NCBI GenBank assembly: GCA_031371785.1
Contig: JANMKC010000018.1
Coordinates: 4,266 to 68,265, forward strand
DNA from: Flavobacteriales bacterium
GTDB taxonomy: Bacteria > Bacteroidota > Bacteroidia > Flavobacteriales_F > PHOS-HE28
Direction: 5' to 3'
Length of the DNA: 64,000 nucleotides
Shown here: positions 11,048 through 54,435 of the stretch, piece after piece
Layout: every line of letters begins with the position of its first letter
Numbering within the stretch: position 1 is the first letter of the stretch
The notes under the pieces: model-generated
Seen by the model: the letters and a program-made list of their open reading frames with translations, nothing else
Database searches by the model: none
What the model was told of the DNA's origin: nothing
Program-made: the position numbers and the translations under genes

Positions 11048-12643
11048 TCAGCGATCCTTCACGACCCAGTCCACCACTACCTCCCACCCGGCGCGCACGT
11101 TCACTTGGTCCGCTTGCCGGAAAACGCGTTCGGGCTGGCGGTGCGCTCGCAAGGATCCTGTGGACCACCGACCATCATCATTGTTGTCCGCGATGAGTTT
11201 GAGTGTGTAAACCCCAGCGGTCGTTCCGGGCCGTTCGAAGCGGTGCGGCAACGAGGTGAACCGATCCGAGAACACCACGCCTCCTTGGGCGTTGATCAGT
11301 TGAAGGATGAAAGGCCCCTGGACCACTGTCGAGCTATCAACGGAAAGGTCCACTTTCAGATCACCGACCTGCGCGGCGGCTTGTGCGCCGAGGGCGATAC
11401 GCAGTGTGTCGTTGCCGCTTCCATAAATGTCTTGGATCGCACCGGGCAGCAGTTCGAGGGCGGCGCTGTGGCCTTCCGGCAGCTTGGCGCGCAACAGCAA
11501 TTTGCGAGGCATCAGGGTGTCGATCACCAGGTCGAAAGGAAGGGTCATTGAATCGCTCCGTAAGGTGATCCGTTCAGGATGTATCCGTGCGATGGGCCGC
11601 GTGGCAATAAGCAACTGATCACCGCTCGCGGAAATGCCCCCGCTCTTCGCATCCACATAGAACGGCATCTTCCGCAGGACCCGGTATGTGAGCGTGTCGA
11701 TCACCCCGCTGCTGTCCGAAACGGCGAAGTGCTGGTCGGCGAGCAGGGTGGTATCGGAAGGCCACAGCAGCACCGTGTCGCGTGTCGCGTTCCATTCGGG
11801 CCACCAAGTGAGCGAGCCGCCAGTGCGGTCGAGCGCGCGGAGATCGAGCCGTTCCTCATATCGTGCGAGCACTGCCCGACATCCGCGATCAGGTTGCACG
11901 ATGGCCTCGATCACTTGCTGCGTCGGAGCCGGTTCACGGAACATCCGAAGCGCCTGCGGTAGGCTGTCGCGCGGATCGATCACATCATCAATGAAGGCGA
12001 TGTCCTCGTTCGGCAGGTCGTAGCGGTAGTTCGCGTTCTGGTCGCGCAACGCATGCAAGCGATAGTGGCCGCCGCGCAAATGCCGCAGTTCGAAATGGCC
12101 AGCCTTGTCTGTGCGAGTGAAATAGGCAGGGCGTCCTGCGGTGAAGCCCAGCGGGTCGGTATCCTCGTGCAGGACCACGAGCACGCTCGCTTCGGGTTCC
12201 GCTGTGAACGCATCGCTCACGGAACCGGTCACGCGCAGGCTATCGAGCACGTCACCCGTGGACATCACATAGCTCAGCCCGGAAGCCGCGTTGCCTTCAG
12301 TAAGGTCTACCACCGCTTCGCCAATATTGAAGGTGTAGGTGGTGTTGGCACGCAGTGGCGCTTTCAATGTGATCACCACATCGCGGCCACCGCTCACGAG
12401 CACATCCGGTACGTGGTCCAGCGGGGGTGAAACGAGCAGGCGCTCACGTATGCGGTCGAGCTTCACGCGTTCGTTGAAACGCAGCACGATGCGATCACCT
12501 GTGAAGCGCACGGTCCTGTCCGGTGGATCAGCACTGAGCAGTATGGGAGCTGTGATGTCCTTCGCTCCGCCTTCCGGTTCGCGCACCTGTGCGCAGGCGG
12601 CCAACAGGCAAATACAGAGGACCGTGGCGGCCTTTCGCGTCAT
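11048..12643 (-). CDS. lipoprotein, probably with Ig-like domains (hypothetical)
   Basis: start MTRKAATVLCICLLAAC is a lipobox; the ATG overlaps the stop of the upstream GAF gene (ATGA). Confidence 0.55.
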   Translation of the reverse strand: MTRKAATVLCICLLAACAQVREPEGGAKDITAPILLSADPPDRTVRFTGDRIVLRFNERVKLDRIRERLLVSPPLDHVPDVLVSGGRDVVITLKAPLRANTTYTFNIGEAVVDLTEGNAASGLSYVMSTGDVLDSLRVTGSVSDAFTAEPEASVLVVLHEDTDPLGFTAGRPAYFTRTDKAGHFELRHLRGGHYRLHALRDQNANYRYDLPNEDIAFIDDVIDPRDSLPQALRMFREPAPTQQVIEAIVQPDRGCRAVLARYEERLDLRALDRTGGSLTWWPEWNATRDTVLLWPSDTTLLADQHFAVSDSSGVIDTLTYRVLRKMPFYVDAKSGGISASGDQLLIATRPIARIHPERITLRSDSMTLPFDLVIDTLMPRKLLLRAKLPEGHSAALELLPGAIQDIYGSGNDTLRIALGAQAAAQVGDLKVDLSVDSSTVVQGPFILQLINAQGGVVFSDRFTSLPHRFERPGTTAGVYTLKLIADNNDDGRWSTGSLRAHRQPERVFRQADQVNVRAGWEVVVDWVVKDR

Positions 12644-13128
12644 TCGAACAAGGGCTCCAGCAGGTCGCACAGGCGTTGGAGGGCATGCGCGTCCACATCG
12701 CTGAAATCATTGGGCGTGATGCTGTCGATATCGAGCACGGCGGCAATACGGCCATTGCTGTCGCGCACGGGCACCACGATCTCGCTGCGGGTCCGCGCGC
12801 TGCACGCGATGTGCCCGGGGAACTGGTCCACGTCTGGCACCACCATCACCTTCTCTTCCGCCCAAGCGGTGCCACAAACGCCTTTGCCATGCGCGATGCG
12901 GCTGCACGCCACCGGCCCTTGGAAGGGCCCCAGGACCAATTCGGCACCAAGCACGCGATAGAAGCCGACCCAGTGCCAATTGAACGCTTCGCGCAAGGCC
13001 GCGCTCATGTTCGCCATCGCGGCAATGAGGTCGCGCTCTTCCTCCAATAGCGCCATTACCTGCGGCGCAAGGGCTGAATAGATCGTTACGCGATCACCCG
13101 TGGAGGGAAGGATCAACTGCTCGGTCAT
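12640..13128 (-). CDS. GAF domain protein (free methionine-R-sulfoxide reductase-like)
   Basis: PFQGPVACSRIAHGKGVCG...VVPDVDQFPGHIACSARTRSEIVVP matches the fRMsr/YebR family. Confidence 0.8.
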   Translation of the reverse strand: MTEQLILPSTGDRVTIYSALAPQVMALLEEERDLIAAMANMSAALREAFNWHWVGFYRVLGAELVLGPFQGPVACSRIAHGKGVCGTAWAEEKVMVVPDVDQFPGHIACSARTRSEIVVPVRDSNGRIAAVLDIDSITPNDFSDVDAHALQRLCDLLEPLFE

Positions 13129-13177
13129 GGTTCTTCAACGCTGGATGTTCCGGCGACGGGGCTGCGAAAGTACCGGC

Positions 13178-13924
13178 TCACGCGCAAGCGCAGGTGAACA
13201 CGCTGAGCTTGATGCCCGGCACCGCGGACAAGGCCATCGCGCATGCTTCGATCGTTGCGCCGGTGGTGATCACGTCGTCCACGAGAAGCACATGCGCGTT
13301 CCGCAATGCATCCGGATCGGCAACGTGGAACGCCTCCTTCACATTGCTCCATCGTTCCAAGCGGCCGCGTTTGGTCTGCGTCCGGGTACTCACCACACGC
13401 AGCAGTTCATCGCCGAGGTTCTTCAACGGCCATACCTCGCGCATGCCGTCCACCAGCACTTGTGCTTGATTGAAACCGCGCTGGTGCAGCTTGCGCGGAT
13501 GCAGTGGCACAGCGAGGGCCGTATCCACATCAGCGAAGCGGCGCGAGGACATCGTTTCGCGGGCCATGCGTCGGCCGAGTTCAAGGCCCACCTCGCGATC
13601 GCCCTTGTACTTCAGCCGGTGGAGCATGTGCTGTACCATGCCGTCGCGCGCGAATTGCAACATGGCGCTCGCGGCCATGAGCGGGAGTTTGCCCCAGAAC
13701 AACTGCTCCACCTTGTTGCGCGCATCGTCGTGGAAACGCGTGAGCGGCAGATCCTCCGCACAACGCAGGCAGATACTCTCCTCGAAGCGCATCAAGGCAC
13801 CGTCGCAGGCCGCGCATCGCCGGGGCAGAAAGAGGCCAACGAAATCGTAGAGTGCGTTATGTGAGGGCTGTTCCACGGGTTCAATACTTTGTTGAAAACG
13901 GCGGTGGGGCCGAAAAGTGCCCAT
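13178..13924 (-). CDS. comF: ComF family protein (phosphoribosyltransferase domain)
   Basis: N-terminal zinc-finger-like CAACDG...CLRC; C-terminal PRTase motif VLLVDDVITTGATI; the exact start is uncertain. Confidence 0.75.
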   Translation of the reverse strand: MGTFRPHRRFQQSIEPVEQPSHNALYDFVGLFLPRRCAACDGALMRFEESICLRCAEDLPLTRFHDDARNKVEQLFWGKLPLMAASAMLQFARDGMVQHMLHRLKYKGDREVGLELGRRMARETMSSRRFADVDTALAVPLHPRKLHQRGFNQAQVLVDGMREVWPLKNLGDELLRVVSTRTQTKRGRLERWSNVKEAFHVADPDALRNAHVLLVDDVITTGATIEACAMALSAVPGIKLSVFTCACA

Positions 13925-43162: not shown

Positions 43163-43470
43163 ACCCCCTCTAACTCCCCCGGTGGGGGAGGACCTGAAAA
43201 CCGATCAAGACAACTCCGAGAGAAAGTAGACACGGTTCCAACATGGTCGGCCCCTTCCCCACCGGGGAAGGTTTGGGATGGGGTCGCATTGAACACTTGC
43301 CCGTTGATGATCTGCTGAAGACGACCGACGAAAACGAAGAGACCGAAGACCACCTTTCCGATCCCGCTCGCAACCACTTTGTCAGTTCGAGCGAAGTCGA
43401 GAACCCACATAAACCACTACCCCGAAGGCGAAGCGGGAGCCGAGCCGAAGGACCAAAACCAACACGAAGC

Positions 43471-46035
43471 ATGTATGTAGTCAAACGCGACGGACGCCGG
43501 GAGGCGGTGAAATTCGACAAGATCACTGCCCGTGTGAAGAAGCTCTGCTATGGGCTCGATCCCATGGTGGATGCCACACAGGTCACACTGAAAGTGATCG
43601 ACGGCATCTTCGACGGTGTCACCACCACGGAGCTCGATAACCTCACGGCGGAAGTCGCGGCCACCATGACGGTGAAGCACCCGGACTACGCACAGCTCGC
43701 CAGCCGCATCGCGGTGAGCAACCTGCACAAGAACACCAAGAAGTCCTTCAGCGAGGTGATGAAGGACCTCTACGAATACCTCGACCCGAAGACCGGTGCG
43801 CGCGCCAGCCTTCTCGCTGATGATGTCTATACCATCATCAAGGAGAACGCGGATCATCTGGACAGCTCCATCATCTACGACCGCGACTTCACCTACGACT
43901 ACTTCGGTTTCAAGACGCTCGAGCGCAGTTATCTCTTGCGTCTGCACGGCAAAGTGGCCGAGCGTCCGCAGCACATGCTGATGCGCGTGGCCATCGGCAT
44001 CCACAAGAACGATCTCGACAGCGCGATCGAGACCTACAACCAATTGAGCGAAGGCTGGTACACGCACGCCACGCCCACGCTCTTCAACGCGGGTTCGCCG
44101 AAGCCGCAGATGAGCAGCTGCTTCCTCTTGCAGTTGAAGGACGACAGCATCAGCGGCATCTACGACACGCTGAAGCAATGCACGCAGATCAGCCAGAGCG
44201 CCGGCGGCATCGGCCTCAGCATCCACAACCTTAGGGCGAAGGGCAGCTACATCAAAGGCACCAACGGTACCAGCAACGGCATCGTACCGATGTTGCGCGT
44301 GTTCAACGACACCGCGCGTTACGTCGATCAAGGCGGTGGAAAGCGCAAGGGCTCGTTCGCCATCTACATGGAGCCGTGGCATGCGGACATCGAAGATTTC
44401 CTGGAGCTGAAGAAGAACCACGGCAAGGAGGAAATGCGCGCGCGCGACCTCTTCTATGCGCTGTGGATCCCGGACCTCTTCATGAAGCGCGTGGAGCAGA
44501 ACGCCGACTGGACACTGATGTGCCCGAACGAGTGCCCCGGCCTCGCGGACACCTGGGGAGAGAAGTTCGAAGAGCTGTACGAGAAGTACGAGCAGGAAGG
44601 ACGCGGTCGCAAGACGATGAAGGCGCAGGACCTCTGGTTCCACGTGCTGGAAAGCCAGATCGAAACGGGCACGCCCTATATCCTCTTCAAGGACGCTGCC
44701 AACCGCAAGAGCAACCAGCAGAACCTCGGCACCATCAAGAGCAGCAACCTCTGCACGGAGATCATCGAGTACACCAGCGCGGATGAAGTGGCGGTGTGCA
44801 ACCTCGGTTCCATCGCCTTGCCGAAGTTAGTGGAGCGTGGATCCTTCAATCACAACAAGCTCTTCGAAGTGACGCTGCAGTTGACGAAGAACCTCAACCG
44901 CGTCATCGACGAGAATTTCTATCCGATACCCGAAGCGCGCCGCAGCAACATGCGCCACCGCCCCATCGGCATCGGCGTGCAGGGCCTGGCGGATGCTTTC
45001 ATCCTGATGCGCTACGCCTTCGACAGCGTGGAAGCGAAGGTGCTGAACCGCGAGATCTTCGAAACCATCTACTACGCCGCGCTCACCGCGAGCAAGGATC
45101 TCGCGAAAGAACACGGCGCGTACGAGACCTATGAGGGGAGCCCGATGAGCAAGGGCGTGCTGCAGTTCGACATGTGGGAAGGCGTGAAGCCATCCGATCG
45201 CTGGGAGTGGGACATCCTGCGCGAGGAGATCAAGAAGTACGGCATACGCAACAGTCTGCTGCTCGCCCCGATGCCCACGGCGAGCACCGCGCAGATACTC
45301 GGCAACAACGAGTGCTTCGAGCCTTACACCAGCAACCTCTACACGCGGCGCGTGCTGAGCGGCGAGTTCATCGTGGTGAACAAGTACCTGCTGCGCGACC
45401 TGGTGAAGCTCGGCCTGTGGAGCGAGGAGATCAAGAACAAGATCATCGCCGCGAACGGCAGCGTCGCACATATCCCGGAGATCCCGCAGAACCTGAAGGA
45501 CCTCTACAAGACCGCCTGGGAGATCAGCCAGAAGACCATCATCGACATGGCGGCGGACCGCGGCGCGTACATCTGCCAGAGCCAGAGCCTGAACATCTTC
45601 ATGGAGAACGTGAACTTCGCCAAACTCACCAGCATGCACTTCTACAGCTGGAAGGCCGGCCTGAAGACGGGCATGTACTACCTGCGCACCAAGGCCGCCA
45701 CCGACGCCATCAAGTTCACGCTGGACAAGGCAACCATACAGAAATCAGCCGCTGCGGAAGTGGCCTCGAAGGCCCACGCGAACGGTGTTGCTGTGGGTAC
45801 AACCGTGATGCTCGACCCCGTGATGAGTGGACCCGTGATCGCTTCACGCAATGGCCTGTACGCAACTGCGGAGCAGCACGAAACCGAAACCCTGGTGGAA
45901 GAAGCGGGCGAACGCAACGGACCTGTGGAGAACGGCATGGCTGCGCACCGTGTGGCTGCTATGAGCGCAGATGCGCAAGCGCAAATTGCTTGCTCGCTGG
46001 ATGATCCCGATAGTTGTGAGATGTGTAGCGGGTAG
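43471..46035 (+). CDS. nrdA: ribonucleoside-diphosphate reductase subunit alpha (class Ia)
   Basis: ATP-cone N-terminus [18 protein letters not shown]; active-site ...SNLCTEI...; C-terminal cysteine tail ...CEMCSG. Confidence 0.95.
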
Positions 46036-46080
46036 AGGAATCGATTGAGGGCATTGTGAAAAAATGAGCCAACAGCTATC

Positions 46081-46515
46081 ATGCTTGGCGGAGTATTTGA
46101 CAGTTGGAAATTGAAGGTCTACTATACGCAGGCGTTGAGCGAGTATTCCGTTCTTCGACGAAGAGGATTTTCAGACTTGGATGCAAAGATTCACCTACTG
46201 AAGCTGGATCTTGAATTGAACAGCAGCATCGGAATTAGCTCGGCCATCAAGCAACGAGTTGAGGAACTAGATGTGCTGGGCGAAATCCAATTCATGGTCT
46301 GGTTCAATGCCTCACTGAAAACGAAGTGCCCTCGCATACCCATAGTCAAAAACATTAATGAGTTCGTTCGTGAAAGAAGTGTGTTGAGCGACATTGCGTT
46401 TCACTCTGGTGATTGGTGGGTGATCAAAGCGGACCTCAAGGATGACAGCCTTCCATCAGAAAGGGAATTCAATGATCTCGGCAAGGAACTAGCTGAACGA
46501 TTCCTCCTTGCGTAG
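46081..46515 (+). CDS. hypothetical protein A (low-GC island gene)
   Basis: 144-aa ORF at ~42% GC; its stop TAG is immediately followed by the ATG of the next gene. Confidence 0.5.
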   Translation: MLGGVFDSWKLKVYYTQALSEYSVLRRRGFSDLDAKIHLLKLDLELNSSIGISSAIKQRVEELDVLGEIQFMVWFNASLKTKCPRIPIVKNINEFVRERSVLSDIAFHSGDWWVIKADLKDDSLPSEREFNDLGKELAERFLLA

Positions 46516-47046
46516 ATGAATACCGCACCGCTCTCCTATGTATCGAAATTCGACTACTATGCTGTTCGTGACTCCCTTGGCCAAGAGGCGAGTCGGTCCG
46601 GTTTGAACACGGACATCATCAAGTCGATCCACGAAGTGTTCAAAGAGATTGAAGATGTTCACTATCTCAATGCGGTCCGTACCGACGCGACCCGATTGCG
46701 CGCAAGTCTGTTCCATTTGAAAGGTATGCGCTTGCTGCTGGATTTGAAAGCCATGGACTGCCCTGAGCAAATTTTGTCTCGGACTTCCGATCTCTTCATT
46801 GACCACTTTCTCAAGCTCACGGTTGCGTCTGTGAACACGGCGACGACAGCCAACCAACAGCTAAAGAACTTCACTGCCCTGGTGTCTATTCAGGCTGGGA
46901 TGAACGGAATAGAAGAATTGCTTCAATTGCGCCCGTCTGTTGAAGCAGCTTTGGCCATGGCGGCGATCGATCAAGACCTAAGGAAGCTTTTCATCGTTGT
47001 TCACCCGGTTGCACAACAGGAGATAGCGAATAGAGGTAAGCAATAA
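46516..47046 (+). CDS. hypothetical protein B (low-GC island gene); alpha-helical with an Rx4H HEPN-like motif
   Basis: 176 aa; RASLFH (Rx4H) is embedded in a helical context. Confidence 0.5.
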   Translation: MNTAPLSYVSKFDYYAVRDSLGQEASRSGLNTDIIKSIHEVFKEIEDVHYLNAVRTDATRLRASLFHLKGMRLLLDLKAMDCPEQILSRTSDLFIDHFLKLTVASVNTATTANQQLKNFTALVSIQAGMNGIEELLQLRPSVEAALAMAAIDQDLRKLFIVVHPVAQQEIANRGKQ

Positions 47047-47110
47047 CAGCATCCATCATAGACAAGCATGCACGCTCGTGTGCTTGCTGAACGACGCAAT
47101 GAGAGGGGGC

Positions 47111-47803
47111 CTATGTCGTGAAGGAGAGGTTTGTCTTGTCCTCCACAATTAACCTGTAGCCGGGAGTTCTCCCTCGTCGCTCAATCTCAAGCTTCCCGGT
47201 CGCTTTGACTGTTCCGCTATACTGGCCAGACACGAACTTTTTGACGAAGGCCAGCGTCATGCCGGACATGTCCAGTACTTCAACTGGAACGCTACAGCCC
47301 AAGAAGGTGAAGCCATTGGAAAGCTCCATGATCGCCCCCTGCTCCTTGATCTGGCCGGTAAGTGTCACGACTTGATTCTCGTAGCGCCCGGACTGAACAT
47401 CCGCACTTGTCAATGCAGAAGCATTGATCTCAATTGGCTTAGGCTTTGATTCACCTCCCCACATGCTCATGGGCCTTTTGCCAGCCGCCTGTCTCAATTG
47501 ATCTCGAACCTTATCAACACGATAAGAAAGAATCAGGCTTCGGTACTGAATGGCGACCAAGATATGCTGGCATGCCTGGATGTCGCCGCTCTTCTCCAAA
47601 TCCACCAAAAGAACCGCCAGTTCCTGAACCCGATGCGCATCGATCAACTTGCGCATTTCGTTCGAGAGCATCTGATAGCTCGCCTTGTTCTCGCGCTGTC
47701 GGAATGAATTGAAGCGCCAGAGCACAATGACGACTATGATCAGGACTATCCAGAGCATGCGAGTCGGAAGTGGTTGGAACAAGTGTAGCGAACTTTCCTC
47801 CAT
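47111..47803 (-). CDS. membrane-anchored protein with a C-terminal OB-fold (tRNA_anti-like) domain
   Basis: N-terminal TM helix MLWIVLIIVVIVLW; C-terminus ...YENQVVTLTGQI...GQYSGTVKATGKL... is OB-fold-like. Confidence 0.55.
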   Translation of the reverse strand: MEESSLHLFQPLPTRMLWIVLIIVVIVLWRFNSFRQRENKASYQMLSNEMRKLIDAHRVQELAVLLVDLEKSGDIQACQHILVAIQYRSLILSYRVDKVRDQLRQAAGKRPMSMWGGESKPKPIEINASALTSADVQSGRYENQVVTLTGQIKEQGAIMELSNGFTFLGCSVPVEVLDMSGMTLAFVKKFVSGQYSGTVKATGKLEIERRGRTPGYRLIVEDKTNLSFTT

Positions 47804-48139
47804 GCCATGGCTCTCCCAGCGGACACCTGTTCTATGCCGCGACTCGATCAACGACAGTGAATACGGGCAAAAACGAAGAGCATGAAATCCTAACTTCGAA
47901 GCAAACTTGCGGAAGCATGCGTAGCCGGAGTGTTGAACGCGAAGTTTGCGAAGACAAGCTGTGGGAAGTTCAGAAGGCATTGATCAGGGTCAACGGCATT
48001 CTTGACCAACCAAGCTTGGAAAACAGAGCGGTGTACATGAGCCAAAAGAAGGGCTTGGAAGAACAACGCGAAACATTGTCTGTGGAGATCGATCGACTCA
48101 CCGTCGGCATGTGACAATCTCGAAGTACCCGACCATAGC

Positions 48140-48421
48140 ATGGGGCGCGCACACAAGCTTTCCTGTCCGTCCTGCGGCTATGGTGAACGCTTCATCAGTG
48201 ATGGCCGTACGCGAGGAATGATTGCCGAACTACAGTCCATCCACTGCTTGGACTGCGCACGACTGTACAATGCGAATGTTGGCTCTTTCGAACCTCGGAA
48301 GACGTACCCCATCACGTGTCCAAAGAGCATTGTCCACATAGTTGTTGAGTGGCAACATCCGGGTCCTTGCCCCAAGTGCGGCACCACGCTTACTGACAGC
48401 GGAGTCATTTTGTGGGACTAG
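48140..48421 (+). CDS. small zinc-ribbon protein
   Basis: CPSCG ... CLDC ... CPKCG cysteine pairs. Confidence 0.5.
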   Translation: MGRAHKLSCPSCGYGERFISDGRTRGMIAELQSIHCLDCARLYNANVGSFEPRKTYPITCPKSIVHIVVEWQHPGPCPKCGTTLTDSGVILWD

Positions 48422-48484
48422 ACCCCATCTGCGCGAGTCTGCCAGACTTGTCCAGTTGGCCCCCAATCTCGCGCGAGTGTTAGG

Positions 48485-48549
48485 CCTCTGGCGGTGAACA
48501 AGTCTCGCGAACAGATGGCCAGAGGCAAAGAACGACCTTGCCGATCGGC
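48485..48549. repeat. 65-nt direct repeat H, copy 1, with an internal 9-bp-stem hairpin
   Basis: 63 of 65 nt identical to 49863-49927; stem gcctctggc (48484-48492) / gccagaggc (48518-48526), loop 25 nt. Confidence 0.85.
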
Positions 48550-48575
48550 TTGAGCAAGGCGAGCGACGGGATGGA

Positions 48576-49090: not shown

Positions 49091-49182
49091 GATACCCCCG
49101 ATCTCCCCCCCGAACACACGCTCGGGTGCGGCGCATCTCCGCCGCTCGGCTTATCCGCAAGCAACAAAGTCTGCCGATCGGC
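49091..49182. promoter_or_regulatory. ~93-nt repeat U, copy A (shared upstream element of the antitoxin genes)
   Basis: ~87% identical to 49754-49846; lies 34 nt upstream of the antitoxin ATG, next to a TAnnTTTG-like motif. Confidence 0.6.
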
Positions 49183-49753: not shown

Positions 49754-49846
49754 GATGCCCCGATCGCACCACCTCCGAACCCACGCTCGGGTGCGGTGCA
49801 TCTCCGCCACTCGGCTTGACCGCGAGCAACAACGTCTGCCGCTCGG
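49754..49846. promoter_or_regulatory. ~93-nt repeat U, copy B
   Basis: see 49091-49182. Confidence 0.6.
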
Positions 49847-49862
49847 TGTGCGGTGCGTTCCG

Positions 49863-49927
49863 CCTCTGGCGGTCAACAAGTCTCACGAACAGATGGCCAG
49901 AGGCAAAGAACGACCTTGCCGATCGGC
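49863..49927. repeat. 65-nt direct repeat H, copy 2
   Basis: see 48485-48549; stem 49862-49870 / 49896-49904. Confidence 0.85.
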
Positions 49928-49971
49928 CTCATCACAGATAGGAAAAGCCCAGCGGCAGGATGGAGAAGAGT

Positions 49972-50173
49972 TCAGAAATGGATCGATAGCACAGCAGCGA
50001 GCCCTTCGCGGATCGGTTCCATCACCGTTGCGCTCACAACGCCAACTCGTTCGGTAAAGCGGTGCTCGCTGATCGAGCGCACTTGGAAACAGTCCGCCGC
50101 TGAAACCTTGCTGAGTTTGTTCTTCGCGTCCGGCGTGATGCGCACTTTCCAAGGAACTTGGGCATAGTGCATC
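49972..50173 (-). CDS. small hypothetical protein (67 aa)
   Basis: high-GC3 ORF MHYAQVPWKVRITPDAKNKLSKVS...; family not recognised. Confidence 0.3.
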
Positions 50174-50327
50174 GCAGGTTCAGGCAGGTTCGATCCCTTG
50201 TTTTCATCCCCGGTAGTGAGCGACACGTTCGACCTGCACTTATGAACTTGCGATAGAGGCAAAACTCTTTCTAGAATGCATGAGTCAGGAACAGGGATTG
50301 CTGCGGTAGCTGCATAACCTGAACACC

Positions 50328-50477
50328 ATGAGCCAGAAGAAAAGAACAGTCGCACCCCACGCCAAGCCTCCCGGCCTCGGTCGCAGCGCCATTACCGGCC
50401 GCTTCATGAGCGTGGCCGCTGCCAAGGCGCATAAGAAGACTGCCATCGTGATGGGCGGGAGGAGCGGAAAGAAATAG
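50328..50477 (+). CDS. small basic hypothetical protein (49 aa)
   Basis: MSQKKRTVAPHAKPPGLGRSAITGRFMSVAAAKAHKKTAIVMGGRSGKK; below the ORF-track length cut-off; speculative. Confidence 0.25.
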   Translation: MSQKKRTVAPHAKPPGLGRSAITGRFMSVAAAKAHKKTAIVMGGRSGKK

Positions 50478-50898: not shown

Positions 50899-51240
50899 TT
50901 ACCTCAGCAGCAGGATGAGCAGCAGGATGATGATCACCGTGCCAGCCGAGATGTAGATCACCTCACCACCACGGTTGTAGGTGGCCGCTTCACGCTTCAG
51001 GTCTCTTACCTCGGTACGCAACGCCTTCCGTTCTTCATGTGTAAGCGTTGAGCGATCAATGGTGCTGATCGTCTCCAAGCGATCGACGATCTGGAGCACG
51101 CATTGTTGATCAGCGCTGTTCAACTTCTGGAAGTTCTCCTGGTTGATGCGTATGGGACTCGAAGGCTCACTGGCCAATGTCGTATTGGCGAAGAGGCCGA
51201 AGCCGAAGCTGACCAACAGGAGGTGTTTCATGTTCTTCAT
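50899..51240 (-). CDS. small secreted/membrane protein (signal peptide plus C-terminal TM helix)
   Basis: MKNMKHLLLVSFGFGLFANTTLA signal; C-terminal VIYISAGTVIIILLLILLL. Confidence 0.5.
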   Translation of the reverse strand: MKNMKHLLLVSFGFGLFANTTLASEPSSPIRINQENFQKLNSADQQCVLQIVDRLETISTIDRSTLTHEERKALRTEVRDLKREAATYNRGGEVIYISAGTVIIILLLILLLR

Positions 51241-51550
51241 GATCATGGGTTTGGCGCATCGCAGCCGAAGAAGCATGCCGCAAGGCTGCGCGGGCCTCGA
51301 ACGGTGCAATATCAGGCACGACCGCGCGAACGCCGGAAGAAAGAAGCTTGGTGTTGCGCGTAGCATATGGGGATATTCCTCCACAACATCTGCGGTGAAA
51401 AGTCCTCCGTATCCACAAATGCGGCACATGTTCGTACGGTCCCTGCTAGGGCATGCTTCCCATCGAGCAGGGATCGCTCATCCGGGCCAGAGGCTTTCGG
51501 ATCACCGATATTCGCCTGTTCCGCTTCTCTTTGCAGCACGCACAACCGAT

Positions 51551-52231
51551 ATGGCCATGACCAACGAACCTCGCACGATCGTGAAAAAAGCGAACAGGAT
51601 CGAGAACTACGAGAAGATCGAATGCAGCTTGATACTGATCGACCTGAGCGGTTTCACGCAGTTGCTCTATCACGCCAGCTACTCGGAGAAGATCATGCGC
51701 ACGGTGGTGCTGGCGATGAAGAAGATGTTCCAGGACGCGATGCTCTCGGCTTCAGCCGCGCGGGACATCCAGATCATCAATACGACAGGCGACGGCTTCA
51801 TCGCGATCGCCATCGGCGACACACCATCGCGTACGGCGGTGAAATACGTGGAGCAGGTGCGCATCCATTTCGTGCAGTACGTGAGTTCGATCGTCAACTC
51901 CGTCCCGTTCCGGCAGAAGGTGGACCTGCGGATCGCGCTGCACCACGGGAGCGTGTACCGGATGGAGATCGCCGATCCTTCGGGCGCTGCCTATCCCCTC
52001 TACCTTGGCGACGACATCAACCTGATCGCGCGCGTGATCAATGGCCAGGTGGCGCGCCGCTATGGGGTGGCCATCACCAAGCACTTCCTCCGGCGACTGA
52101 TGTTGCAGGACAAGAGCACGACCCCGGACGAGGTGATCGTGGACCGCAATCGCTATCCGGAGCAGATCGACATCTACCGGCTGCCGGACCGCATTCCCGA
52201 ATACGTTCCGGCGAAGAAGCGCAAAGCATAG
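51551..52231 (+). CDS. standalone class III nucleotidyl cyclase domain protein (adenylate/guanylate-cyclase-like catalytic domain only)
   Basis: metal-binding Asp motifs LILIDLSGFT and INTTGDGFIAIAIGD; LRIALHHGSVY; transition-state motif GDDINLIARV (N...R); the canonical K/D (ATP) or E/C (GTP) specificity positions are occupied by T/N and L. Confidence 0.7.
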   Translation: MAMTNEPRTIVKKANRIENYEKIECSLILIDLSGFTQLLYHASYSEKIMRTVVLAMKKMFQDAMLSASAARDIQIINTTGDGFIAIAIGDTPSRTAVKYVEQVRIHFVQYVSSIVNSVPFRQKVDLRIALHHGSVYRMEIADPSGAAYPLYLGDDINLIARVINGQVARRYGVAITKHFLRRLMLQDKSTTPDEVIVDRNRYPEQIDIYRLPDRIPEYVPAKKRKA

Positions 52232-53125: not shown

Positions 53126-54340
53126 CTACTTGAACGCCGCCAGCCCCGTCACCTCCTGCCCGGTGATGAGCAGGTGGATGTCGTGCGTGCCTTCGTAGGT
53201 GACCACGCTTTCGAGGTTCATCATGTGGCGCATGATCGGATACTCGTTGGTGATGCCCATGCCGCCGAGGATCTGTCGGGCTTCGCGGGCCACGGTAAGG
53301 GCGAGCATCACGTTGTTGCGCTTGGCCATGCTGATCTGCGCGGTGGTGGCGCGGCCTTCATTGCGCAGGGTGCCGAGGCGCCACGTGAGCAGTTGCGCCT
53401 TGGTGATCTCGGTGATCATCTCGGCGAGCTTCTTCTGCGTGAGCTGGAACTGGCCGATGGGCTTGTCGAACTGGATGCGCTGCTTCGCATAGCGTAACGC
53501 CGTGTCGTAGCATTCCATCGCCACGCCGAGCGTACCCCACGCGATGCCGTAGCGCGCGCTGTCCAAGCAGCCAAGCGGTGCACCGAGACCGCTCTTGTTC
53601 GGCAGCAGGTTGGTCTTCGGGACCTTCACGTTGTCGAACACGAGTTCACCGGTGGGTGATGCGCGCAGTGAAAGTTTGCCATGTGTCGTCGGTGTGGTGA
53701 AGCCCTCCATGCCGCGCTCCACGATGAGGCCATGGATGCGGCCGCTCTCGTCCTTCGCCCACACCACCGCGATGTCCGCGATGGGGCTGTTGCTGATCCA
53801 CATCTTCGCGCCGTTCAGCAAGTAGTGGTCGCCCTTGTCGATGAAGTGGGTGGTCATGCCACCGGGGTTGCTGCCGTGGTCCGGCTCGGTGAGACCGAAG
53901 CAGCCGATCTTCTTGCCCGCGGCGAGTTGTGGCAGCCACTTTTTCTTCTGCTCCTCGTTGCCGTATTTCCAGATCGGGTACATCACCAATGATCCCTGCA
54001 CGCTGCACAGGGAGCGCAGTCCGCTGTCGCAACGTTCGATCTCCTGCATGATCACGCCATAGCTGATCTGGTCCAGGCCCATGCCGCCGTATTCGATGGG
54101 CACCATCGGCCCGAACGCACCTATCTCCGCCAGACCGGGAATGATCTCCGGATGGAATTCCGCCTTCTCGAAGCTCTCTTCGATGATCGGCTTCAGGTAC
54201 TTGCTTACATGCTTGCGCGCCGTTTCACGGATCAACTTCTGCTCCTCGGTGAGCAGTTCATCCACCAGGTAGTGGTCGTGGAACTGGAAGAGGTCGGTAG
54301 CGGTGGACTTCTTTGCCGGAGTGGTCGCGGTGGAATTCAT
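53126..54340 (-). CDS. acyl-CoA dehydrogenase, glutaryl-CoA dehydrogenase-like
   Basis: ...CFGLTEPDHGSNPGGM...; C-terminal YEGTHDIH...; full-length ACAD architecture. Confidence 0.9.
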   Translation of the reverse strand: MNSTATTPAKKSTATDLFQFHDHYLVDELLTEEQKLIRETARKHVSKYLKPIIEESFEKAEFHPEIIPGLAEIGAFGPMVPIEYGGMGLDQISYGVIMQEIERCDSGLRSLCSVQGSLVMYPIWKYGNEEQKKKWLPQLAAGKKIGCFGLTEPDHGSNPGGMTTHFIDKGDHYLLNGAKMWISNSPIADIAVVWAKDESGRIHGLIVERGMEGFTTPTTHGKLSLRASPTGELVFDNVKVPKTNLLPNKSGLGAPLGCLDSARYGIAWGTLGVAMECYDTALRYAKQRIQFDKPIGQFQLTQKKLAEMITEITKAQLLTWRLGTLRNEGRATTAQISMAKRNNVMLALTVAREARQILGGMGITNEYPIMRHMMNLESVVTYEGTHDIHLLITGQEVTGLAAFK

Positions 54341-54435
54341 GTGGATGTGTGGAGCCTGTTCAACAGTGGGTGCAAAAGTAGGACGGCCCATCGCGCCCTT
54401 TCCCGCAGGAGCGGTCCACCTTTGCACCCTTGGGA

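Follow-up and report, generated by a model that had tools for sequence, protein, structure and literature searches.

What kind of genes does a Flavobacteriales bacterium carry directly behind nrdA, the gene for the large subunit of its class I ribonucleotide reductase (RNR)? On contig JANMKC010000018.1 of assembly GCA_031371785.1, of which a stretch of 64,000 nt was analysed (hereafter the window, to which all coordinates refer), the stop codon of nrdA is followed by a stretch of low-GC DNA (46036-48430) that opens with two small adjoining genes, termed A and B. An initial annotation made from the letters alone had taken them for a coupled, horizontally acquired unit with a possible role in defence, in which B might be a HEPN ribonuclease (RNase). 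As set out below, it is close to certain that A and B are real genes, that they constitute a conserved pair, that they are foreign and that they occupy a variable slot, while a function in genetic conflict is a serious possibility that reaches an even chance at best. The features concerned are the following.

43243-46035, plus strand: nrdA, class I RNR large subunit, the conserved left flank
46036-46080, plus strand: spacer of 45 nt between the nrdA stop and the start of A, in which the GC drop begins; no terminator-like hairpin
46081-46515, plus strand: gene A, an open reading frame (ORF) of 144 aa; orphan family with one relative, A', on the contig L009
46516-47046, plus strand: gene B, 176 aa, predicted all-helical; orphan family with one relative, B', on L009

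Genes A and B as a conserved coding pair

A and B lie in the same frame and are joined without any gap (...GCG TAG ATG AAT...), and the lengths and the TAG-ATG junction given in the initial annotation are confirmed. The length of the two ORFs is unconvincing on its own, since the longest stop-free run in shuffled versions of the low-GC island reaches at least 144 codons in 18% and at least 176 codons in 4% of cases. Apart from a second lineage, each of the two proteins forms a singleton cluster among approximately 15 billion proteins. This second lineage emerged from an exhaustive phmmer search with B against 1.84 billion representatives, the sole match of which (P0020, 54% identity) sits on L009, a 1.5-kb ENA contig, and led to the homologues A' and B'; two more contigs, one of them from a wastewater metagenome, correspond exactly to parts of the L009 sequence.

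L009 comprises the last 29 nt of nrdA (ending in ..CEMCSG and the stop codon), a spacer of 41 nt, A' with its TAG stop, 6 nt and B'. A' has 144 aa and is 69% identical to A over 144 of 144 columns without a single gap, and B' has 172 aa and is 52% identical to B, with in-frame indels only; D96 and H97 of B are among the conserved residues. Order, strand, frame, the TAG stop, a start codon for the second gene and the location after nrdA are all retained, the spacing between nrdA and the first gene being 45 nt in the window vs 41 nt in L009. Beyond B', L009 continues with unrelated sequence: tblastx against the window matches nothing past B, and no homologue of the next gene in the window, C, is present. 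C is absent from L009 and no part of the conserved module. The pairing of small, adjacent and co-directional genes, by which type II toxin-antitoxin (TA) modules are commonly recognised, is hence found conserved between A-B and A'-B', which makes A-B a conserved bicistronic module as judged from these two lineages. The co-occurrence in other genomes that had been suggested as a check is therefore observed, albeit in one other lineage only, and the coupled two-gene unit recurs there in the same order, frame and position.

Both members of the pair bear the imprint of selection at the protein level. The ratio of nonsynonymous to synonymous substitution rates (dN/dS, Nei-Gojobori) amounts to 0.12 for A vs A' and to 0.18 for B vs B', with 31/26/72 and 65/40/96 differences at the first, second and third codon positions, respectively. 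Synonymous sites are near saturation between the lineages (proportion of synonymous differences, pS, approximately 0.7; dS approximately 2). Because the pair is conserved in L009, dN/dS is low, changes concentrate at third positions and indels are confined to in-frame events, A and B are two genuine protein-coding genes under purifying selection that are conserved as a pair.

Foreign composition behind the nrdA stop

The window as a whole has a GC content of 58.8%, whereas the stretch 46036-48430 has 50.6% vs 59.1% for the remainder. Among all 2.4-kb stretches of the window it ranks lowest, in agreement with the extent of about 2.4 kb given initially. In 300-nt windows, GC lies between 45 and 55% inside the stretch, compared with a median of 59% and a first percentile of 53% outside; the contrast of 42-52% vs about 62% stated in the initial annotation thus reflects a real drop but is overstated at both ends. 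The left edge is abrupt and coincides with the nrdA stop (46035), where GC falls from 0.57 (46035 and the 99 nt before it, 45936-46035) to 0.44 (46036-46135) in 100-nt windows, so that the sharp drop reported to start one nucleotide past the stop is borne out; the consecutive values across the stop are 0.61, 0.60 and 0.57 followed by 0.44, 0.44 and 0.51. The right edge is gradual, at approximately 48100-48400, and falls within a gene termed D.

Codon usage deviates likewise. GC at third codon positions (GC3) is 0.54 in A, 0.59 in B, 0.61-0.64 in C and 0.62 in D, compared with 0.82-0.88 in nrdA and nrdB and a median of 0.73 for the long ORFs of the window; in L009, A' and B' have values of 0.59 and 0.58. 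GC at first positions exceeds that at second positions in A, B and C, which is the usual pattern of coding sequences. In base composition and codon usage, 46036-48430 hence deviates from its surroundings in the way in which horizontally acquired islets are expected to. The nrdA-A junction is real and no assembly artefact, because the sequence across it is reproduced at 100% identity by three independent Logan contigs, each from a different run.

A hypervariable slot at the 3' end of nrdA

The left flank of the islet is well conserved. The nrdA product matches the Pfam families ATP-cone, Ribonuc_red_lgN and Ribonuc_red_lgC (E = 1.9e-221). Its ORF and the 930-aa NCBI call run about 76 codons upstream of the start in relatives (43243-43469), and DNA homology with the loci L004 to L008 begins at 43467-43470; the true start probably lies near 43470, at the Met of MYVVKRDG..., as predicted from this comparison.

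Five loci were compared first (L004-L006, L007 and L008), the nrdA genes of which are approximately 87-89% identical in DNA. Homology with them covers a DUF3109 gene, nrdB and nrdA, and ends at 46036, the base after the stop, in L004-L006, and already at 45731 in L007 and L008. When the 3' flanks of the window, L009, L012, L004 and L006 are aligned, conservation stops at GGGTAGA. Beyond this point, four different contents were found, namely those of the window, L009, L004-L006 and L012, as is expected of a horizontally acquired islet. The window carries A-B, C, D and subsequently TA modules. L004-L006 carry a gene for a protein with a zinc ribbon and a DUF4145 domain (PF13643, E = 1.8e-11), behind which WG-repeat and peptidase genes are located. 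L012 (12646-13939) carries a strong terminator right after nrdA (RNA fold z = -3.95), a 301-aa GHKL-ATPase-like protein with a domain-level match to a DrmA model (E = 6e-7), a 119-aa STAS-like ORF and further ORFs without a family. GC is lowered for about 3.5 kb past nrdA in L004 and L006 also. The DUF4145 gene of L004-L006 is located at 12578-13210, directly after nrdA, and was called with lengths of 103, 163 and 210 aa, a variation among assemblies that suggests differences in start site or decay. Its product has no PADLOC model at E <= 0.01, and A, B and D show no similarity to it.

The contigs of L007 and L008 break off where nrdA ends, that of L013 breaks off inside the gene, and partial proteins from public assemblies make up most of the nrdA cluster, which identifies the organism as a Flavobacteriales MAG. 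Since assemblers break where strains share a gene and then diverge at once, these breaks are consistent with strain-level heterogeneity from the nrdA stop onward. A right-hand anchor of the slot was not found: tblastx of 46-56.5 kb against the relatives returned nothing, and synteny is lost. Likewise, nothing relevant was found in the literature that links nrdA flanks to hotspots or TA systems. Judging from the sequences compared, the DNA downstream of nrdA constitutes a hypervariable slot that takes up foreign cargo in this clade of wastewater Flavobacteriales, a finding that supports the foreign origin of A-B. The horizontal acquisition assumed in the initial annotation accordingly agrees both with the foreign composition and with the differing content of relatives at the same site.

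New families in a familiar setting

Searches for relatives of A and B outside the two lineages were negative throughout. A word-indexed search of 5.8 billion clusters with A and B yielded no relatives, a profile search with the A family recovered only A and A', degenerate-pattern scans of GTDB genomes, JGI metagenomes and IMG/VR were empty, and so was tblastn against plasmids and phages. PDB sequences gave no significant match to A or B in single-sequence and profile searches. Single-sequence AlphaFold2 (AF2) models were judged unusable for both proteins (B: pLDDT 51, pTM 0.40, six helices; A: pLDDT 43). The statement that neither gene belongs to a recognisable family holds in Pfam, NCBIfam and PHROGs. 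On the strength of these searches, A and B represent new families that are devoid of characterised or detectable relatives beyond the two lineages, while the type of locus is a known one, in which two ORFan genes form a pair within a strain-variable islet next to TA genes.

A candidate conflict module

The reading favoured here is that A-B was acquired horizontally and constitutes an accessory module of two proteins, of the addiction or defence type. It is argued from context and considered nearly an even call; a selected and coupled pair, foreign composition, narrow distribution, a variable slot, TA neighbours and a HEPN gene in the same slot of relatives are the facts that it fits best. TA genes occur within 3.3 kb: a ParE gene (E = 2.5e-8, above the Pfam cut-off), a YafQ-like gene (E = 1.7e-5, below the cut-off) and a MazF fragment. 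The toxin-antitoxin neighbourhood described initially therefore stands as far as ParE is concerned, and is less firm for the YafQ-like gene with its sub-threshold match and for MazF, of which only a C-terminal fragment is present.

The module would have been gained horizontally by homologous recombination anchored in the conserved nrdA, and it may be expressed at least partly by read-through from nrdBA. Such read-through is plausible, as no terminator separates nrdA from the first gene in either lineage (RNA fold z = +0.27 in the window and -0.57 in L009). The products of A and B would act together as a complex, in which one partner might restrain the other until a trigger arrives, as in a self-maintaining TA, abortive-infection or defence module.

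Several observations weigh against this reading. Neither flanking direct repeats around 46036-48430 nor a flanking tRNA were found, the nearest and only tRNA being 11 kb off, and no integrase, transposase or recombinase was matched among the window ORFs scanned. No match of A, B, A' or B' to a family in Pfam, PADLOC, NCBIfam or PHROGs survived scrutiny, and the profile libraries revealed no recognisable toxin, nuclease, nucleotidyltransferase, helix-turn-helix (HTH) or ribbon-helix-helix (RHH) domain in A or B. The isoelectric points (5.7 and 6.5 for A and B; 8.9 and 5.7 for A' and B') show no clear acidic/basic pairing and hence no toxin/antitoxin polarity. A sigma-70 scan performed no better than on shuffled sequence and is uninformative, as promoters in this phylum are not assessable in this way. 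Moreover, the co-occurrence of A and B rests on a single comparison within a family limited to two lineages, the insertion may be common to both by descent, in which case the shared position is no independent evidence, and the location of both copies next to nrdA is also compatible with an RNR-linked role. TAnnTTTG, the -7 consensus of Bacteroidota, does not occur in 41.6-48.7 kb, which is equally uninformative; an Rfam scan of 40-54 kb gave no match.

Among known systems, type II TA operons such as ParDE and RelBE/YafQ-DinJ, which adjoin the locus, resemble A-B in several respects: the genes are small, co-directional and gapless, lie in a foreign variable region beside bona fide TA genes, and show a patchy distribution and purifying selection. 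On the contrary, A-B is larger than typical (144 and 176 aa), belongs to no known family and lacks charge pairing, and neither a toxin domain nor a DNA-binding antitoxin domain (HTH, RHH, AbrB or Phd), by which these operons are characterised, was detected in A, A', B or B'.

Defence and accessory-gene hotspots flanked by conserved core genes have been described for the pangenomes of E. coli and Pseudomonas. The slot behind nrdA is similar in that the nrdA stop acts as a fixed boundary, the low-GC cargo differs with each relative and assemblies break there; it differs in being devoid of an integrase, a tRNA or direct repeats.

A third comparison concerns the cargo of relatives. DUF4145 is a HEPN family, that is an RNase domain (PMC3710099), and the protein RAZR, or PD-T7-4, which joins a zinc finger to a DUF4145 HEPN domain, has been shown experimentally to be an abortive-infection RNase (PMC13017515). 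A protein of the same architecture occupies the A-B slot in L004-L006, so that the slot can hold defence-type cargo and the defence-type neighbourhood postulated initially gains support from the side of the slot (PMC13017515). RAZR differs from A-B in being a single protein; A, B and D are dissimilar to the protein of L004-L006, which is itself linked to RAZR by architecture only.

A more far-reaching version of the conflict-module reading is improbable at present. According to this version, A-B would found a new two-protein conflict system for defence or addiction, with folds unrelated to known toxins, which is inserted between the nrdBA stop and its terminator, is co-expressed with RNR and might even monitor the status of RNR or of deoxynucleoside triphosphates (dNTPs). 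Phages commonly manipulate RNR or dNTP status.

Alternative explanations

The alternatives are, in falling likelihood, ordinary cargo, an RNR accessory role, a HEPN toxin and a pseudogene or non-coding sequence. The first of them, which is unlikely, regards A-B as ordinary strain-specific cargo with a niche-specific or structural, and in any case non-conflict, role in a recombination-prone slot. ORFans abound in variable regions, C and D are orphans too, and no conflict-type domain resides in A or B, all of which speaks for ordinary cargo. It is opposed, though not decisively, by the tight bicistronic coupling that is kept while the flanks differ, as well as by the TA modules nearby and the HEPN gene in the slot of relatives.

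An involvement in RNR function itself is improbable. Here, A and B would be accessory or regulatory factors of class I RNR, concerned with its assembly, cofactor maturation or activity control and co-transcribed with nrdB-nrdA. In both lineages the pair follows nrdA at a distance of 41-45 nt on the same strand with no terminator in between, and both genes are under purifying selection, as would be expected of such factors. On the other hand, relatives with approximately 88% identical nrdA DNA lack A-B and have unrelated genes in this place, and the GC3 of the pair (0.54-0.59 vs 0.82-0.88 for nrdAB) implies that it has not co-evolved with the operon. Furthermore, none of the other genomes and metagenomes searched contains the family, and neither A nor B resembles NrdI, NrdH, NrdR or ferredoxin-type partners in Pfam or NCBIfam.

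The reading of B as a HEPN-fold RNase toxin that uses R62 and H67, with A as its cognate partner or antitoxin, would make the pair a new HEPN-based abortive-infection or TA system. It is quite improbable, even though B is predicted to be all-helical, HEPN families are notoriously divergent and a HEPN (DUF4145) gene fills the same slot in relatives (PMC3710099). The motif behind it, RASLFH, is indeed present in B (R62..H67) and is kept in B' as R-SSLF-H, so that the motif noted initially stands, as does the helical character as a prediction. The meaning attached to them is not supported: B satisfies the Rx4-6H pattern of HEPN proteins, but the pattern is non-specific, as shuffled B contains Rx4H in 25% and Rx4-6H in 58% of cases, and about half of the B/B' columns (52%) are identical anyway, so that two conserved residues weigh little. 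In HEPN proteins, N, D or H usually follows directly after the R, helix 3 ends with the motif and gives way to a loop, and an Ex3[KR] is frequently present further upstream (PMC3710099). In the B/B' alignment, the polar residue after R62 is absent (A in B, S in B'), and no Ex3[KR] precedes the motif in either protein; the AF2 model of B, of low confidence (pLDDT 51), places the motif early in a long helix (58-79).

Profile comparisons point in the same direction. HEPN profiles gave no match to B or B' in Pfam at E <= 1, PADLOC, NCBIfam or PHROGs, and no HEPN structure in the PDB was matched by B using phmmer or a B-family profile. An hhalign comparison of the B/B' profile with the DUF4145 protein of relatives returned a probability of 0.06%, and a Foldseek search of the PDB with the poor model of B (pLDDT 51) retrieved only designed or generic helical repeats at E >= 0.33, with Las1 only at E > 1. 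In addition, A is devoid of a minimal nucleotidyltransferase (MNT) or other nucleotidyltransferase signature. The RASLFH motif hence carries no weight as HEPN evidence, and membership of B in HEPN is unsupported; the HEPN interpretation of the initial annotation finds backing neither in profiles nor in PDB sequences or folds, and the accessory features of the motif are missing. A-B resembles HEPN-MNT and other HEPN RNase systems in that a gene for a partner of about 140 aa comes first and the downstream gene, B, encodes a helical protein with a conserved Rx4H; it differs from them in the missing profile and fold evidence, polar residue and Ex3[KR] of B and in the missing nucleotidyltransferase signature of A (PMC3710099).

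Finally, it is very improbable, and largely refuted, that A-B is no functional pair but a split gene, a decayed reverse transcriptase (RT) remnant or chance ORFs in AT-richer DNA: the two share a frame and are separated by TAG alone, their lengths are not significant by themselves and A has a weak RT match, yet the TAG and the start of B are kept at a dS of about 2, dN/dS is 0.12-0.18 in both halves, and the RT match is generic, unextended and absent in A'.

The individual identities considered in this connection were rejected as follows. A single gene split by a nonsense mutation, or a pseudogene, is incompatible with a stop that is conserved in L009 and with selection on both halves. Residues 92-121 of A weakly match several PADLOC retron RT models (best E = 4e-4); as a remnant of an RT, this match is not extended in an A+B fusion, is absent in A' and has no Pfam RVT counterpart, and as a retron or defence RT it is limited to 30 residues, the same segment matching de novo TIM-barrel repeats and thus constituting a generic strand-helix unit. 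No YxDD motif is present in B. A match of the N-terminus of B to an integrase core-binding domain (2kiw, E = 1) was not significant and had no Pfam support.

Neighbouring genes and repeats

Downstream of B, the low-GC stretch contains a hairpin and two further genes.

47063-47086, no strand assigned: hairpin between the convergent genes B and C, with a 9-bp stem formed by 47063-47071 and 47078-47086
47111-47803, minus strand: gene C, 230 aa (215 aa in the NCBI call), one N-terminal hydrophobic helix, orphan
48140-48421, plus strand: gene D, 93 aa, two CxxC pairs, zinc-ribbon-like, at the right edge of the low-GC stretch

The hairpin may serve as a bidirectional terminator; its region has a z of -0.35, lacks a U-run and is not statistically distinctive. 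C yielded self-matches only among 5.8 billion clusters, and the membrane anchor ascribed to it initially would correspond to the single hydrophobic helix. For D, which had been described as a zinc-ribbon protein, the two CxxC pairs are present, but zinc-ribbon and rubrerythrin-like profile matches remain sub-threshold; GC recovers across the gene, and tblastn found no match to D in plasmids or phages. The divergent gap of 336 nt between C and D harbours a 62-codon ORF (47927-48114, plus strand) that is rich in E, K, Q and L and has no family match. It is probably no gene, its GC per codon position (0.33/0.60/0.57) being atypical of coding sequence.

Further to the right, the ORF at 49972-50355 (minus strand) matches the PemK/MazF model in the C-terminal 60 positions only (E = 1.3e-8) and is probably a truncated or decayed third toxin of the TA cluster. 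The YafQ-like and ParE operons are bracketed by two direct repeats of 66-78 nt, D1 (48479-48556 and 49857-49934) and D2 (49107-49181 and 49772-49846), the copies of which are 88-97% identical; each occurs twice and nowhere else in the window. D2 is located upstream of each TA operon, and D1 lies downstream of the first operon and, at the second, upstream of D2. D1 starts with GTTAGGC and holds a 9-bp inverted repeat (GCCTCTGGC...GCCAGAGGC). D1 and D2 may represent cassette boundaries or duplicated untranslated regions. An integron-like cassette array was considered and rejected in view of the mixed gene orientations and of repeats that occur only twice and never inside 46036-48430.

Beyond the TA cluster, and ahead of the first clear housekeeping gene, an acyl-CoA dehydrogenase gene (53126-54427), two further genes are found. 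The first (51551-52231, plus strand) encodes a stand-alone class III nucleotidyl cyclase domain protein (Guanylate_cyc, E = 6.9e-10) that also matches the Pycsar cyclase PycC weakly over the full length (E = 0.007). The second (50899-51429, minus strand) is divergent from it and encodes a small protein with a predicted signal or transmembrane segment and a C-terminal hydrophobic tail. Together, they could constitute a Pycsar-like pair.

Significance for wastewater Flavobacteriales

The practical weight of A-B is limited, as the family is known from two lineages only, and the finding is real but modest. Since the cargo behind nrdA differs with each relative and includes a RAZR-like HEPN protein, the slot at the 3' end of this gene can serve as a marker when uncultured wastewater Flavobacteriales are mined for accessory and defence genes. 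Should A-B prove to be a working TA or anti-phage module, two new protein families would join the repertoire of conflict systems, and the locus would illustrate how cargo can gain expression by lodging behind an essential, highly expressed operon.

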